Source: a virus
Reading direction: 5' to 3' (one strand)
Length of the DNA stretch: 64,000 bases
Virus record (IMG/VR): IMGVR_UViG_3300042197_003251
Location: 17,018 to 81,017 of that record
Below are positions 1,969 through 17,232 of this stretch, one piece after another; the stretch's first letter is position 1; every line of letters starts with the position of its first letter. The translations under genes and the position numbers were made by a program. Below the pieces are notes generated by a model. That model was given only the letters and a program-made list of their open reading frames with translations. It did not search any database and was not told the DNA's origin.

Positions 1969-3849
1969 TTATTTTGCCGAAACTTCCTCAAAATCCACAT
2001 CCTGGACTTCAGAGTTTGCATCACCTGTCATATTTGAAGCCATATCTTGAGCTTGTTGATACATCTTCATTGAAATATCTTGGAAGGTCTTATTTGTTTT
2101 TTCAACACATTCTTTGATTTTTTCAATGTTCTTGTCGGCGTTTGCCTTTTTAAGTTCATCAAGACTTTCATTAATTTGGGTTTTTTCTTCTTCTGAAATT
2201 TTATCTTCCAAATCTTTTAATGATTTTTCAACTTGGAATACAGTTGCGTCCCCAGTGTTAATTGTTTCAGCTTCTTCTTTTGCCAATTTATCTGATTCAG
2301 CATTTGCTTCAGCCTCTTGTTTCATCTTTTCAATCTCTTCTTTTGATAGTCCTGAAGATGATTCAATTCGGATATTTTGTTTTTTGTTTGTTCCCTTATC
2401 AAGAGCTGATACATTTATAATACCATTTGCATCAATATCAAACGATACTTCAATTTGCGGAACACCTCTCATTGATGGTGGAATTCCATCAAGGTGGAAC
2501 CTTCCGATTGTTCTATTGTCTTTCGCCATTGACCTTTCTCCCTGAAGAACGTGAATTTCAACTGATGGTTGATTATCAACTGCGGTTGAAAATACTTGGG
2601 AAGCTTTGGTTGGAATTGTTGTGTTTGCATTTATAAGTTTTGTAAACACTCCGCCCATCGTTTCAATTCCAAGTGATAATGGTGTTACGTCAAGAAGAAG
2701 AACATCTGTTACATCACCAGCAAGAACCCCTCCTTGAATTGCCGCTCCAAGAGCAACAACTTCATCAGGATTAACTCCTTTTGATGGTTCTTTTCCGAAG
2801 AATTTCTTAACCGCATCTTGAATTGCCGGAATACGAGTTGAACCTCCAACCAAAATAATCTCATCAATATCGCTGATTTTTAGATTTGCATTTGCCAATG
2901 CTTTTTTACAAGGTTCAATAGTTCTTTGAACTAATGGGTCAACAAGTTGCTCAAATTTAGCCTTTGTTAATGTTCTAACCAAGTGTTTTGGAACACCATC
3001 AACTGGCATAATGTAAGGAAGATTAATTTCTGTTGATTGTGAAGATGATAATTCAATCTTTGCTTTTTCTGCCCCTTCACGAAGACGCTGAAGAGCCATT
3101 GAATCTTGTGTTAAATCAATACCATTTTCATCTTTAAATTCTGAAACAAGCCAATCAATAATTGACTGGTCAAAGTCATCACCACCAAGATGTGTATCAC
3201 CATCGGTTGATAATACCTCAAACACACCATCACCTAAATCCAAAATGGATACATCGTGAGTTCCACCACCACAGTCAAATACAACAATTTTTGAATCTTT
3301 TCCTTTCTTGTCAAGTCCATACGCAAGTGCTGCTGCTGTTGGTTCATTAATGATACGTTTTACTGTAAGTCCCGCAATTTCACCAGCTTCTTTTGTTGCC
3401 TGTCTTTGGGCATCGTTAAAGTAGGCCGGTACTGTAATAACCGCCTCTGTAACTTCTTGTCCCAAATAATCTTCTGCGGTTTGTTTCATCTTTTGAAGAA
3501 CAATTGCCGAAATTTCTTGGGGGCTATACTTTTTGTCATCAATTTGAACTCTTGGTGTATTACCCTCACCTTTAACTACTTTATAAGGAACTCGTTTTGC
3601 TTCCTTTTTTGTTTCATCATAAGATGACCCCATAAAACGTTTAATTGAATTAACAGTTTTATCAGGATTTGTGACCGCTTGTCTTTTTGCTGGGTCACCA
3701 ATCTTTCTTTCACCACCTTTTGTAAATCCTACGATTGAAGGGGTGGTTCTTTTTCCTTCACTGTTCGCAATAACTTTAGGTTCTCCGTTTTCCATAACGG
3801 CTACACATGAATTTGTAGTTCCTAAATCTACACCAATAATTTTTCCCAT
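1969..3849 (-). CDS. dnaK: Molecular chaperone DnaK (Hsp70)
   Basis: [57 protein letters not shown]-terminal DVDFEEV. Confidence 0.99.
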
Positions 3850-7644: not shown

Positions 7645-7672
7645 AAAAAAAATGGTGAGCCAAAAGCTCACC
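7645..7672 (-). terminator. Terminator of the tRNA/small-RNA transcript
   Basis: GGTGAGC-tttt(g)-GCTCACC followed by a T run on the minus strand. Confidence 0.8.
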
Positions 7673-7780: not shown

Positions 7781-7782
7781 AG

Positions 7783-7855
7783 TTGCAACTGAAGGATTCG
7801 AACCTCCGACCTTCAGGTTATGAGCCTGACGAGCTGGCCTCTGCTCTAAGTTGCG
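7783..7855 (-). tRNA. tRNA-Met(CAT), initiator-like (C1:A72 mismatch), CCA not encoded
   Basis: CGCAACT TAGAGCAGAGGCCAGCTCG TCAGG CTCATAA CCTGA AGGTC GGAGG TTCGAAT CCTTC AGTTGCA A; full cloverleaf. Confidence 0.93.
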
Positions 7856-7885
7856 ATGTAATAGTTAAACATTAAATATCTAACA

Positions 7886-7920
7886 ATACAAATATACTAA
7901 TAATTTTCACATTTGTCAAT
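7886..7920 (-). promoter_or_regulatory. Bacteroidota-type promoter for the tRNA
   Basis: TTGACA...TATATTTG on the minus strand matches -33 TTG / -7 TAnnTTTG. Confidence 0.75.
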
Positions 7921-7967
7921 TTTTTTTAAAAATCGGTATTTTACTTTTTTTACGGATATTTATTAAT

Positions 7968-8123
7968 ATGAGACCAAGATTAGACGAAACAAAAAAAAGA
8001 GTTAAAGTATCAATAACTCTTAGTCAAAAAATTAATAATAAATTAGAAGGAGACATAATTAACAAATCAAAATTAATTGAAAAATTATTATCGGATTACT
8101 ATGGTAAAAAAGATTTGCAGTAA
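7968..8123 (+). CDS. Small ribbon-helix-helix-like protein (51 aa, not in ORF track)
   Basis: MRPRLDETKKRVKVSITLSQKINNKLEGDIINKSKLIEKLLSDYY; alternating beta-strand then N-K-S-x-L-I-E helix; overlaps HNH start. Confidence 0.75.
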   Translation: MRPRLDETKKRVKVSITLSQKINNKLEGDIINKSKLIEKLLSDYYGKKDLQ

Positions 8124-8784
8124 ATGTAGTATCGAAAAAAATACTAATGAGTTTCAAAAAAACAAATACTCCAAAGATGGATTCAGAAGTGAGTGCTCTG
8201 AGTGCTCCAAAAAAATAAAGAAACTAAAATCTAAAGAACTTATTAGAGAAGAATCAAAAAGATACAGAGAAAAAAATAGAGAAAAATTAAAGGAAAATTT
8301 CAAAATTTATTATATAAATAATAAGAAAAAAGAAAACGAACGAAGTAAAAAATATAGAGAAAAATTAAAAAACAACAAAGAAAATGCGTTACCAGTAAAA
8401 AAAGAACCGTCAGTTCCTTGGAGGGTGAAAAACAAAAATTTGTTCAATAATAAAAAAAAAGAAAAATATCAAAAAGATATCATCTTTAGGTTATCAACAA
8501 ATCTTAGAAATAGGTTGAATAATTTTCTTAAAACAAAAGGTTATAATAAAAATAGTAAAACTTTTGAAATTATAGGTTGTTCCCCTCAACAACTATTAGA
8601 ACATTTAGAAAACCAGTTTGTACCAGGTATGAGTTGGTCAAATAGAAATGAATGGCATATTGACCATATTATCCCCTTATCTTCAGCTAAAGATGAATCT
8701 GAAATATATAAATTATCTCATTACACAAATTTACAACCGCTATGGAAGGTGGATAATCTAAAAAAGGGTTGTAAGTTAATTTAA
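8101..8784 (+). CDS. HNH homing-type endonuclease with N-terminal Zn finger
   Basis: CSKC...CSEC, WHIDHIIPL, HYTNLQPLW..DNLKK; paralog of 45593-46213. Confidence 0.88.
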   Translation: MVKKICSKCSIEKNTNEFQKNKYSKDGFRSECSECSKKIKKLKSKELIREESKRYREKNREKLKENFKIYYINNKKKENERSKKYREKLKNNKENALPVKKEPSVPWRVKNKNLFNNKKKEKYQKDIIFRLSTNLRNRLNNFLKTKGYNKNSKTFEIIGCSPQQLLEHLENQFVPGMSWSNRNEWHIDHIIPLSSAKDESEIYKLSHYTNLQPLWKVDNLKKGCKLI

Positions 8785-8786
8785 CG

Positions 8787-9640
8787 AAGCCTGAGATTAC
8801 AGCTTTTATTGAGTACCTTTAGAGTCATTATTTTTTCTACTCTTATCCACAAGATTTTGTCTTGTATTACTCATCGCCAATTGGTTAGGCCAATCAATCC
8901 TTGACGATACAACTACTCTCTTACTACTCAGCTCTCTTTGAGAATGCCTTCCCAATTAATCCTTGCGAGATTAGAGGTTTTTCGTAAAAATACAGTTCAA
9001 CTTGGGGTCTCACTATGCTCAGAACATCTCTAAGCTATGTGGGCGACTTCCGTTGTACCGTGATGGACACTTTTCCTTTAATTATTTGTAATAATTTAAG
9101 TTTTGTGTCGTGGATGTGTCAGAGTAGTGGTCCACCGTAAGCTCCGTCTCCTTTTGGGCGACAGAATACTAAACTACTCCGTGAAATATCCCTATTTCCA
9201 TACTCTCAGATTACTTCATAAAGTGACCTTGGTAGGTCATCCTTAGGGGTAGTAGCGACACCACTCGTTCTCTACCTTACCTTTCGGTTTTAAGTACCCT
9301 TTGGTATTGGGACCCGCAATTGTGTAGTTGGAGCTACATTTCTTGCTTGGTTCCTATGGGTTATTCTTGTTGGTGTTCCCACCTCAACCTGACAATCCAC
9401 TTTGCCAAGTCACCTGACCACTTTCCCTACAGTGTTACCCTCGGTACTAAAGGTCTTGCGATATCCCACTTGTGTACTTGAGTTCAAATCCCCTTTCGGG
9501 TTTTTAAACCGCAACCTCCTCAACACGGGGGAAGTCACTTTATCCTACTTTCGTAGTTTATTTAAAGACCATACACGGCCCATTATCGTTTATCAGTTAT
9601 CATTATCCCGAAGGACTACTTTCACTGAATGGATAATCTA
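8787..9640 (-). ncRNA. Large structured non-coding RNA (~850 nt), GOLLD-like
   Basis: No credible ORF; visibly GC-richer than flanks; minus-strand tetraloop hairpins GTCC-TTCG-GGAT (9605-9616), CTAC-GAAA-GTAG (9545-9556), CCC-GAAA-GGG (9491-9500), ACC-GAAA-GGT (9279-9288), AATCTC-GCAA-GGATT (8958-8972), plus stem TGACCT/AGGTCA (9224-9239); near a tRNA in a phage. Confidence 0.72.
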
Positions 9641-9642
9641 AC

Positions 9643-9670
9643 TTTCAAAGAACTTTTCGGACATTTCCGA
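9643..9670 (-). promoter_or_regulatory. boxB-like hairpin plus boxA-like antitermination leader
   Basis: TCGGA-aatg-TCCGA hairpin followed by GTTCTTTGAAA. Confidence 0.55.
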
Positions 9671-9675
9671 TTTCG

Positions 9676-9915
9676 TTTTACAAATTTAAGTCAAATTTTT
9701 CGTTCTGTCAAATTTTTCTTAAACTTTTTTTGAGATTTTGGATTTTTCATCGTTTATGAACCTTCATCTCAAATGTTTTACAAATTTACTATCTTTTCTT
9801 TCGTATGTCAAGTACTTTTGTAATTTTTTTTTAGATTTAACTTCCGAGTATCTTTCATTACCTTTAGGTGTCAAATCTTTTACAAATGTAAGTATAAATA
9901 TTGTCAGAACAAGCA
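9676..9915 (-). promoter_or_regulatory. Three tandem Bacteroidota sigma-70 promoters ~100 bp apart
   Basis: TAAATTTGTAAAAC (~9676-9688 and ~9776-9788), TACATTTGTAAAAG (~9877-9890); TTGACA upstream of the first two, TTG upstream of the third. Confidence 0.75.
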
Positions 9916-9918
9916 AAA

Positions 9919-10311
9919 TCAAAAAATTATTTTCAAAATAAATTTTTTTAAACTTTCAATCATATTAAGGTCTTCTATTTCTTTTCTTGTATAATAATTA
10001 CATTCTGTATGTTCATAACCATCCATTGCTTTATTTAAGTCAGGTTGGATTTTTGAATCTGTTTCAAATAAAAATATATGCATTATTTTTTTAACTCTAC
10101 CCTTTTTTAAATTTTTAATTCTTCCCAAATATTTTATCTTGTCCGTTATTTCCAAGTTTGTTTCTTCATAAAACTCTCTATATGCACATTCAAGTGGAGT
10201 TTCACCTTCTTCCATATGACCCATAGGAATTGCCCAAGAACCATCATCCGACCTTTGACAAATTAACAATTTGTTACCACTTTTTACGGCAATTCCCGCA
10301 GTTTCTTTCAT
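9919..10311 (-). CDS. NUDIX hydrolase
   Basis: Nudix box GHMEEGETPLECAYREFYEET; start moved to MKETAG. Confidence 0.92.
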   Translation of the reverse strand: MKETAGIAVKSGNKLLICQRSDDGSWAIPMGHMEEGETPLECAYREFYEETNLEITDKIKYLGRIKNLKKGRVKKIMHIFLFETDSKIQPDLNKAMDGYEHTECNYYTRKEIEDLNMIESLKKFILKIIF

Positions 10312-10322
10312 TTTTTTTCGTA

Positions 10323-10334
10323 TATTTATAAATA
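10323..10334. promoter_or_regulatory. Palindromic divergent phage promoter TATTTATAAATA
   Basis: Overlapping TATTTATA on both strands between the divergent Nudix and DUF192 starts. Confidence 0.55.
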
Positions 10335-10684
10335 TGTTTGTAAAAATAAATAACGACATTAATTTAAAAGTAAAAACTTGCATCTCCAAAAATGAAATAT
10401 CAAAAGGGATGATGAATAAAAGATTTAGGGATTTTGATGGAATGTTATTCTTTATGGGTCCTGATAGTCATTGTTTCTATATGAAAAATTGTATTATACC
10501 CCTTGATATTATTTTTATTGATTCAGATTTAACAATATTAAAAATTTTTGATAATTGTCCTCCATGTATGGAAGATGAATGTGAACATTATTGCGCCGAC
10601 GGCAAATATGTTTTGGAAGTCCCTGGTGGTTTTTGTGAAAAAAACAATATAACCGAAGGTGATATGTGTTCCATAGAATTTTAA
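10334..10684 (+). CDS. DUF192 family protein
   Basis: GMM...GMLF...FYMKNCIIPLDIIFID...YVLEVPGG. Confidence 0.9.
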   Translation: MFVKINNDINLKVKTCISKNEISKGMMNKRFRDFDGMLFFMGPDSHCFYMKNCIIPLDIIFIDSDLTILKIFDNCPPCMEDECEHYCADGKYVLEVPGGFCEKNNITEGDMCSIEF

Positions 10685-17005: not shown

Positions 17006-17232
17006 TTTTTTTCTAAATTTTGTATTTTTCTATCAAGGTACCATGCCGCTTTTTTTAAATCCTGTAATTCTTTATCGGCATCTTTCTTACCCGCTCTTGC
17101 AACATACTTAACCACATTGAATAAGTATGCGTCTTTATCTAATGACCAAGCCTCGCATACCTTAACGACCTCGTAAACATTCTCCTCTCCGCCATAATGG
17201 TCAGGATGATTTACCATTTCTTTATTTTGCAT
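17002..17232 (-). CDS. DUF3310 protein
   Basis: VNHPDHY...NVVKYVARAGKK...QDLKKAAWYL. Confidence 0.9.
   Translation of the reverse strand: MQNKEMVNHPDHYGGEENVYEVVKVCEAWSLDKDAYLFNVVKYVARAGKKDADKELQDLKKAAWYLDRKIQNLEKK

Follow-up and report, generated by a model that had tools for sequence, protein, structure and literature searches.

The 64,000-nt stretch analysed here (hereafter the window), which is part of the 81,017-bp IMG/VR virus record IMGVR_UViG_3300042197_003251 (positions 17,018 to 81,017), carries on its minus strand, at 8788-9653, a non-coding gene of ~866 nt whose RNA almost certainly belongs to the GOLLD class. The gene is built like a small ribosomal RNA (rrn) operon: it has three promoters of the type used by the host phylum, hairpins and a boxA-like word, and in relatives it is followed by a tRNA-Met gene and a terminator. 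We judge it reasonably probable that this GOLLD RNA is made from host-type stacked promoters with a boxA antitermination leader. The first-pass annotation, prepared from the sequence alone, had already proposed between 8787 and 9915 a large structured RNA transcribed in the manner of an rrn operon, and its coordinates were accurate, the GOLLD 3′ end lying at 8788 and the first promoter element at 9912. In the direction of transcription, the gene and its leader consist of the following elements.

9883-9912, minus strand: promoter P1, with TTG (9912-9910), a 19-nt spacer and TACATTTG (9890-9883)
9834-9877, minus strand: P1 leader hairpin (GAUUUGAC...GUUAAAUC), then an A-run; folded as 9830-9882
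9781-9811, minus strand: promoter P2, with TTGACA, 17 nt and TAAATTTG
9729-9773, minus strand: P2 leader hairpin (UUUGAGAU...AUCUCAAA), then an A-run; folded as 9725-9780
9681-9711, minus strand: promoter P3, the nearest to the RNA, with TTGACA, 17 nt and TAAATTTG; its -7 box ends at 9681
9657-9670, minus strand: small leader hairpin UCGGA-AAUG-UCCGA, after P3 and boxB-like in position
9643-9653, minus strand: boxA-like word GTTCTTTGAAA, three bases after the small hairpin
9182-9642, minus strand: GOLLD 5′ domain, defined by homologs and covarying helices; ~9642-9585 variable, core from 9581 conserved
8788-9181, minus strand: GOLLD 3′ domain (Rfam RF02032)

The GOLLD class was reportedly first described by Weinberg et al. 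in 2009. The Rfam GOLLD model (RF02032), which covers the conserved 3′ domain only and has a curated gathering cut-off of 150 bits, matched 9181-8788 with 300.2 bits (E 6.7e-85) over model positions 1-416 of 416. In the searched segment 7600-10000, only GOLLD and tRNA exceeded the Rfam thresholds, ROOL was unmatched, and the 460 nt at 9642-9182 gave no other Rfam family at E up to 1. These 460 nt were compared with GOLLD loci from IMG/VR (at least 120, fetched with one exact 3′-domain pattern and designated here by L numbers). By blastn, the 5′ domain was homologous to the 5′ domains of 74 of the 120 other viral loci among the matches listed (counted by hand), and L107 (93.5%), L115 (91.5%) and L087 (88.6%) were the best matches among the loci listed. 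The window was then aligned with 29 of the 35 cluster representatives (<88% identity) of 72 loci bearing the boxA-like word, and RNAalifold on these 30 homologs gave 195 pairs in 36 helices, of which 139 pairs showed compensatory changes, that is, changes on both sides. The 5′-domain helices from 9581 to 9183 all contained such changes, and both domains covary. The first-pass annotation had reported at least five GNRA- or UUCG-capped hairpins, all on the minus strand; six were located, the five with GNRA loops being supported as covarying helices.

9615-9606, minus strand: hairpin UCC-UUCG-GGA, in the variable part and outside the consensus fold
9556-9545, minus strand: hairpin CUAC-GAAA-GUAG, a covarying helix
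9500-9491, minus strand: hairpin CCC-GAAA-GGG, a covarying helix
9383-9372, minus strand: hairpin GGUG-GGAA-CACC, a covarying helix
9288-9279, minus strand: hairpin ACC-GAAA-GGU, a covarying helix
9198-9183, minus strand: hairpin GAAAUA-GGGA-UAUUUC, a covarying helix

The same annotation had seen raised G+C content and no credible open reading frame (ORF) in this region, and both observations hold. The G+C content was 0.41-0.45 in 300-nt windows over 8850-9599 versus ~0.21-0.31 in most flanking windows. The ORFs within 8788-9915 encode 41-79 aa, and when a conserved ORF was sought in the 30 homologs, the longest stop-free stretch was 55-127 codons and differed in strand and position from homolog to homolog; a conserved ORF was thus rejected. 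The assignment to GOLLD therefore rests on the RF02032 score, the shared 5′ domain, the compensatory pairs, the lack of a conserved ORF and the viral nature of the record. Of the two identities offered in the first pass, GOLLD or a new large RNA class, the latter is rejected by the strong full-length GOLLD match and the lack of any other Rfam family in the searched segment. The Rfam match, a check that had been suggested there, confirmed the RNA and, as was foreseen, lowered its novelty.

The pattern TA[AC]ATTTGTAAAA occurs exactly three times in the window (9890-9878, 9788-9776 and 9688-9676), always on the minus strand and ~100 nt apart, in agreement with the three promoters proposed in the first pass. 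These predicted sites are stacked and have the form TTG-N19/20-TAnnTTTG, and TTGACA lies 17 nt upstream of the -7 box in two of the three (P2 and P3). A TAnnTTTG box with an upstream TTG is the promoter form of Bacteroidota, and the same TTG/TAnnTTTG (-33/-7) form is visible before Bacteroidota 16S genes. TTGAC-N14-22-TANNTTTG matched the window five times versus 1.2 expected, a number reached in one of 100 shuffles. The arrangement recurs among relatives. In the 67 listed leaders with 400 nt upstream, three -7 boxes were present in 10, two in 32, one in 19 and none in six, and in 55 listed homologous leaders a TAnnTTTG box ends ~24-30 nt before the boxA-like word. Relative to this word, the -7 positions of the window (-237, -135 and -35) recur in L087, L107 and L115; the box at the P1 position (-237) is also found in L029 along with these three, in which the box at the P2 position is likewise kept.

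Every one of the three promoters has a hairpin downstream. The fold after P1 (-10.2 kcal/mol, z -2.74) was equalled in stability by two of 200 shuffles and that after P2 (-11.0 kcal/mol, z -4.10) by none of 200, and in L121 and L075 a P1-type hairpin stands directly before the boxA-like word. The hairpin and motif that the first pass had placed just before the structured part correspond to 9670-9657 and to GTTCTTTGAAA at 9653-9643. At the place of this small hairpin, a stem of 4 bp or more forms in 26 of 28 distinct leader segments from relatives, and the hairpin takes 16 different sequences, including UCAGGA/UCCUGA, CAGUA/UACUG and UUCGG/CCGAA.

The copy of GTTCTTTGAAA at 9653-9643 is the sole exact one in the window and in the 81-kb record. 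Allowing up to two mismatches, the 11-mer was found 750-1000 nt before the GOLLD 3′ end in 78 of the 120 listed loci and was exact in 64 (counted by hand); with at most one mismatch, it stands at the GOLLD 5′ edge in 72, and 18 of the remaining 48 end too close to the RNA for judging (hand count). When loci are aligned on the word, both flanks vary and the word is constant, and its distance to the conserved core GGGCCGTGTATGGTC ranges from ~10 to ~70 nt. The usual arrangement upstream is TTGACA-N17-19-TAACTTTGTAAAAC, then a hairpin and then the word. The word is kept in L057, L027 and LR745206.1, where a tRNA and a hairpin replace the upstream promoter. The GOLLD locus of LR745206.1 (L208, 418935-422155; 3′ domain 230.8 bits by nhmmer) has two copies of the leader word, in the order promoter, hairpin, GTTCTTTGAAT, tRNA, hairpin, GTTCTTTGAAA and GOLLD, which is the fullest rrn-like layout. 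LR745206.1 is a published but unannotated 635-kb phage genome. A few loci of the Bacteroidota type carry the word variants GTTCTTTGACT and GTTCTTTGATT, the word is deleted in L094, and in a further group of loci the word is lacking and GOLLD directly follows a tRNA. As a separate observation, L089, on a viral contig, has a CRISPR-like array in place of the leader, in the ~200 nt directly upstream of the GOLLD core and running into GOLLD, with at least three copies of the 36-nt repeat GTTGTAACAACCCTTAATTTGAAAGGTATATACAAC and spacers of ~30 nt.

The leader word was compared with those of bacterial rrn operons. Of 401 Bacteroidota genomes, 124 had the degenerate word GTTCNTTGANA at a distance of 40-300 nt upstream of the 5′ primer site of 16S, and none had the reversed control there; the 401 genomes were drawn from the phylum of a GOLLD-bearing Flavobacterium metagenome-assembled genome (MAG) contig, L136, the sole entry to that phylum. 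Exactly GTTCTTTGAAA was present in 63 of the 124 (hand count), and most others had GTTCTTTGA[CT]A or GTTCATTGAnA; about half of the matching genomes thus have, upstream of 16S, the very word called boxA-like in the first pass. Many Bacteroidota rrn leaders also show the order of the GOLLD leader, namely TTG, ~19 nt, TAnnTTTG, a short hairpin and the word. The window has the rrn-type positions as well, with the -7 box of the predicted promoter P3 followed by hairpin, word and stable RNA. The proposal of a boxB/boxA-like leader transcribed as in an rRNA operon is therefore supported, at the level of sequence, by promoter form, word identity and the order of hairpin and boxA. The correspondence of the word to rrn boxA is one of phylum level: no 16S gene was found in five GOLLD-bearing draft genomes, and relatives were thus sampled in place of a direct comparison between host and prophage. 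In Streptococcus, ten rrn leaders have a hairpin plus GACCTTTGAAAAC; in 41 Streptococcus genomes, no match to the pattern TCTTTGANA was seen before 16S, because the word there is ACCTTTGA.

According to the accessible parts of the papers cited here and below by identifier, B. subtilis rrn operons have a small 5′ hairpin and then at once the boxA-like AUGAUCUUUGAAA, with binding of NusB seen by nuclear magnetic resonance (2026 paper, PMC13753749), and the boxA of E. coli is UGCUCUUUAACA (PMC13753749). Between the GOLLD word GUUCUUUGAAA and the B. subtilis consensus AUGAUCUUUGAAA, 10 of 11 positions are identical. According to a review (PMC8632103), boxB-boxA-boxC sites of leader and spacer nucleate the rrn elongation complex, boxA being the main requirement; at the RNA exit channel, the complex forms a ring that acts as a chaperone. 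Use of the host boxA by a phage has been described for T7, behind the early promoters A0-A3 (PMC3709561). These comparisons argue, with a little better than even probability, for a function of GUUCUUUGAAA as boxA.

The first pass had also suggested co-transcription with the downstream tRNA. The region downstream of GOLLD contains the following features.

8077-8784, plus strand (opposite to GOLLD): endonuclease gene, phrog_1035 'endonuclease VII', E 5.3e-22
7889-7919, minus strand: separate promoter of the tRNA, similar in type to P1-P3, with TTGACA, 17 nt and TATATTTG, 11 of 12 consensus positions
7782-7855, minus strand: tRNA-Met (CAT), directly downstream of GOLLD in relatives
7654-7672, minus strand: intrinsic-terminator-like hairpin downstream of the tRNA, with 8 pairs, 5 of them G-C, then the T-run ATTTTTTTTG

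In L087 and L115, 17-18 nt separate the GOLLD 3′ end from a tRNA-Met of identical sequence, behind which stands a terminator; the tRNA-Met of L107 is a different one and lies 16 nt past GOLLD. In the window, an insertion of 915 nt (~7868-8782), present also in L029 and absent from L087 and L115, separates GOLLD from the spacer before the tRNA. It holds the endonuclease gene, whose product had no Pfam match, and this endonuclease VII/HNH-like insertion looks like a mobile homing-endonuclease cassette. A terminator scan of the window found none directly after GOLLD, the next being that at 7672-7654, past the tRNA. Co-transcription is thus only partly supported: the three relatives have the tRNA close behind GOLLD, whereas in the window the insertion separates the two and the tRNA has its own promoter. 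Other tRNA-type genes were seen near GOLLD in the comparison loci. ARAGORN found phage-borne transfer-messenger RNA genes within a few kb of GOLLD (L042, 2090-2486; L060, 5161-5566), and arrays of 5-15 tRNA genes occur in L042, L051, L059, L020 and L060. Three tRNA-like genes of L059 (10374-10448, 10477-10551 and 11474-11549) were given irregular anticodon loops by ARAGORN (four-base 'gaag' and 'ggaa', two-base 'gt'); they might resemble frameshift suppressors or simply be miscalled.

In four metatranscriptome runs, each from a different study and of riverine or freshwater origin, the span 8778-9624 is covered by contigs at least 88% alike. Over the GOLLD body, the word depths add up to hundreds to ~35,000; they were 16-76 in the tRNA bin and none in most flanking bins, and bins 9625-10000 and most of 7931-8777 had little or no contig cover. 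Because contigs of different relatives (at least 88% alike) are pooled here, and cover is lacking where conservation is lower, the data are not used for inferences on 5′ processing, ends, strand, level or absence of the leader. A few contigs do carry leader sequence (joints 9563>9671 and 9592>9675), and in library X21 one contig lacks the intervening 915 nt, with 7867 joined directly to 8783, as in the insertion-free form. GOLLDs of the window's clade are present in RNA libraries and apparently plentiful there. The earlier suggestion that the RNA is made in bulk is compatible with GOLLD-body contigs in all four libraries, although such contigs are no measure of expression. Separately, library X24 had contig depths of 259 (8393-8469) and 65 in two bins within 8393-8546, in the endonuclease gene, where the other three runs had none.

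From these observations, we propose the following course of events, in which we infer the action of the Nus factors. Host RNA polymerase would start at up to three stacked promoters, and GUUCUUUGAAA in the nascent transcript would act as boxA, loading NusB-S10 and the other rrn antitermination factors. The polymerase so modified would transcribe the long untranslated structured RNA quickly, without Rho-dependent or pause-induced termination, and in relatives it would also complete the tRNA behind GOLLD. It may also aid co-transcriptional folding, as described for rRNA. In the phage of the window, a mobile endonuclease gene would have split the tRNA from GOLLD; the tRNA, now with a promoter of its own, might still be reached by antiterminated transcripts from GOLLD. 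A broader and rather unlikely proposition is that in one large clade of Bacteroidota phages the GOLLD genes are pseudo-rRNA operons, for which the host rrn complex (Nus factors, S10, S4 and SuhB) would double as a chaperone of folding and cage assembly, and that bulk GOLLD transcription would compete with host rrn operons for these factors, tying cage production to host ribosome synthesis or depressing the latter.

Several results weigh against a boxA leader served by host-type promoters. The -7 motif is only mildly enriched in the window as a whole (51 versus 38.7 +/- 6.4), which suggests that host-type promoters are concentrated at RNA genes. Taken alone, the small hairpin is unexceptional (z -1.24; 24 of 200 shuffles as stable), and its support comes from conservation across homologs, not from its own stability. 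The 120 listed loci are a biased sample owing to the one exact 3′ pattern, and the word is absent from 30 of them with enough upstream sequence (hand count). The family around the Flavobacterium MAG has the rrn word GTTCATTGA[CT]A, unlike the GOLLD word. A boxC-like element was not identified after the word, there being no Bacteroidota boxC consensus for comparison, and the GOLLD sequence at that place (e.g. AGATTATCC) is unlike the G/T-rich stretch after the rrn word. A genome-wide GOLLD scan gave 44 matches, of which 38 were chance matches by nhmmer; five prophage GOLLD loci in Streptococcus genomes were confirmed. In these, GTTCTTTGAAA with up to two mismatches was not at the 5′ edge, and the streptococcal rrn word GACCTTTGAAAAC, again with up to two mismatches, was in none of eight loci (the five from genomes and three viral ones). 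The leader is thus a trait of one GOLLD clade, not of the GOLLD class, and the idea that GOLLD always carries the boxA of its host was rejected on the same grounds. The candidate boxA TTTGTTTGAGA upstream of Streptococcus GOLLDs was dropped, as it apparently lies in the promoter region.

The word itself might belong to the mature GOLLD, through tertiary or long-range pairing or as a contact between cage subunits, its likeness to rrn leaders being a coincidence or U-rich convergence. Its invariance and its place, immediately at the 5′ margin of the folded part, would fit such a role, and the same invariance makes covariation uninformative on pairing within the RNA. A search for complementary 6-8-mers gave numerous conserved purine-rich segments as potential partners and was indecisive, and RNAalifold draws a 4-bp helix, without covariation, from UUGA in the word (9648-9645) to UCAG in the 3′ loop (8794-8791). 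That partner, however, is a terminal loop engaged with P23 and J24/26 in cryo-electron microscopy (cryo-EM), as far as the accessible text of 10.1101/2024.12.08.627333 describes it. The variable spacing of ~10-70 nt between word and core, the first stems being sometimes wholly missing, and the Streptococcus GOLLDs without the word also speak against a structural role, and an 11/11 match to the 16S word of the host phylum behind the same promoter and hairpin is hardly due to chance. We regard this role of the word as quite improbable. A function of the leader in processing or stability, in which a 5′ hairpin blocks 5′-end-dependent decay and the U-rich word is a ribonuclease or S1/Hfq-type site without effect on elongation, has a similarly low probability. 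The hairpin after each of the three promoters would be expected of it, and rrn leaders are also processing substrates. S1 is moreover described as having affinity for boxA (PMC8632103, accessible part). This function nevertheless leaves the retention of the exact rrn word unexplained, and the word equals boxA, which in the accessible accounts is sufficient for rrn antitermination in E. coli (PMC8632103) and binds NusB in B. subtilis (PMC13753749); the two roles are compatible. Very improbable is an attenuator or terminator formed by the hairpin at 9670-9657 and the T-rich stretch, which would limit GOLLD, the 'promoters' then being other repeats. The terminator scan does list 9670-9657 as terminator-like, but the stem has five pairs and its tail AAAGTTCTTT has no U-run directly after the stem, the same arrangement stands before 16S genes, the -7 boxes have TTG at the spacing of Bacteroidota rrn promoters, and RNA-library contigs cover the body downstream. 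Stacked host-type promoters with a boxA leader thus remain the reading we prefer.

The record has a CheckV completeness of 28%, and the DNA runs containing the stretch are freshwater metagenomes. The RNA has as neighbours a NUDIX hydrolase gene (ending at 9919) and DUF192, SLT, DHH-like and metallophosphoesterase genes. As listed, the NUDIX ORF (9919-10389, minus strand) and the DUF192 ORF (10271-10684, plus strand) overlap by ~120 nt (10271-10389) on opposite strands, and the true start of one of them is probably further in. A further gene bears on the origin of the record.

1969-3849, minus strand: gene of a DnaK/Hsp70-like protein, phrog_22485, E 4e-259

This DnaK-like protein shares 67-68% identity with proteins of the uncultured phages LR745206.1 (634,780 bp) and LR756502.1 (642,428 bp), and 63-68% across phages of 635-735 kb (these two and LR756501.1), which ties the record to these huge phages. 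The DNA of LR745206.1 and LR756502.1 also matches the GOLLD 5′ domain, and LR745206.1 likewise has a GOLLD with the same leader. The source is a large freshwater phage, most likely with a Bacteroidota host. As a minor feature, an exact 12-nt direct repeat, TGGATAATCTAA (plus strand), flanks GOLLD at 8750-8761 and 9630-9641 with a spacing of 880 nt; the first copy falls within the end of the endonuclease gene, the second within the conserved beginning of the 5′ domain, and the repeat may be due to chance.

Both the RNA class and the antitermination mechanism are known; what is new in the locus is their combination, not the kind of element. A literature search found no paper linking GOLLD with boxA or antitermination, although Weinberg et al. 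2009 and its supplements were outside its reach and may hold an earlier mention; a search for the word together with boxA returned nothing relevant. GOLLD has been a structural showpiece since 2009 without a known function or biogenesis pathway, and although the locus adds nothing on function, it gives a testable statement on synthesis: host-type stacked promoters and a leader copying the rRNA leader word of the host phylum. If the word works as boxA, rrn-type antitermination would extend to a phage non-coding RNA, the escape of an untranslated 850-nt transcript from Rho would be explained, and NusB and S10 would be named host factors for a possible role in cage formation. In addition, the leader indicates the region of the true 5′ end in these GOLLDs, a part outside the Rfam model, and points to Bacteroidota hosts.

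Among known systems, the RNA itself agrees with the GOLLD class in its full-length match to the model, in having a conserved 3′ and a more variable 5′ domain, and in length (~850 nt versus 833 nt for env-38). The cryo-EM structure of env-38 is a 14-mer, and its gene lies beside a Met-tRNA (10.1101/2024.12.08.627333), a phage context near tRNA-Met that the window shares. A 12-mer structure of the S. agalactiae GOLLD is listed in PMC12990946, and the solved GOLLDs assemble without protein into 12- to 14-mer cages (10.1101/2024.12.08.627333; PMC12990946). No difference was seen in the RNA at the level of model match, domain layout and length. The accessible parts of both structure papers make no mention of promoters, boxA or antitermination. 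ROOL is likewise a large cage-forming RNA of phages and prophages near tRNAs (10.1101/2024.12.08.627333), but the window has no Rfam ROOL match.

For the leader, the closest likeness is to the bacterial rrn leader, with its tandem P1/P2 promoters, boxB-boxA-boxC and a complex of NusA, NusB, NusE/S10, NusG, SuhB and S4. Stacked promoters, the order of hairpin and then boxA, a stable structured RNA as cargo, the exact word of Bacteroidota 16S leaders and a tRNA downstream in relatives are common to both, and the second word copy of LR745206.1, between tRNAs and GOLLD, resembles a spacer boxA. The cargo differs, being a phage RNA instead of rRNA, and boxC is unrecognised in the window leader; the function of the Bacteroidota word is itself inferred from E. 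coli and B. subtilis. The B. subtilis leader shares the hairpin-boxA order and, as noted, all but one position of the word, but belongs to another phylum, and in the accessible account the binding was demonstrated for B. subtilis proteins only (PMC13753749). As with the lambda nut sites and the boxA behind the T7 early promoters, described in the accessible parts of PMC3709561 and PMC8632103, a phage transcript made by host polymerase would carry boxA and resist termination. In lambda and T7, however, boxA serves early mRNAs, and lambda needs its N protein, whereas in the window the word stands before a non-coding RNA, in the order of an rrn leader, and nothing implies an N-like factor.

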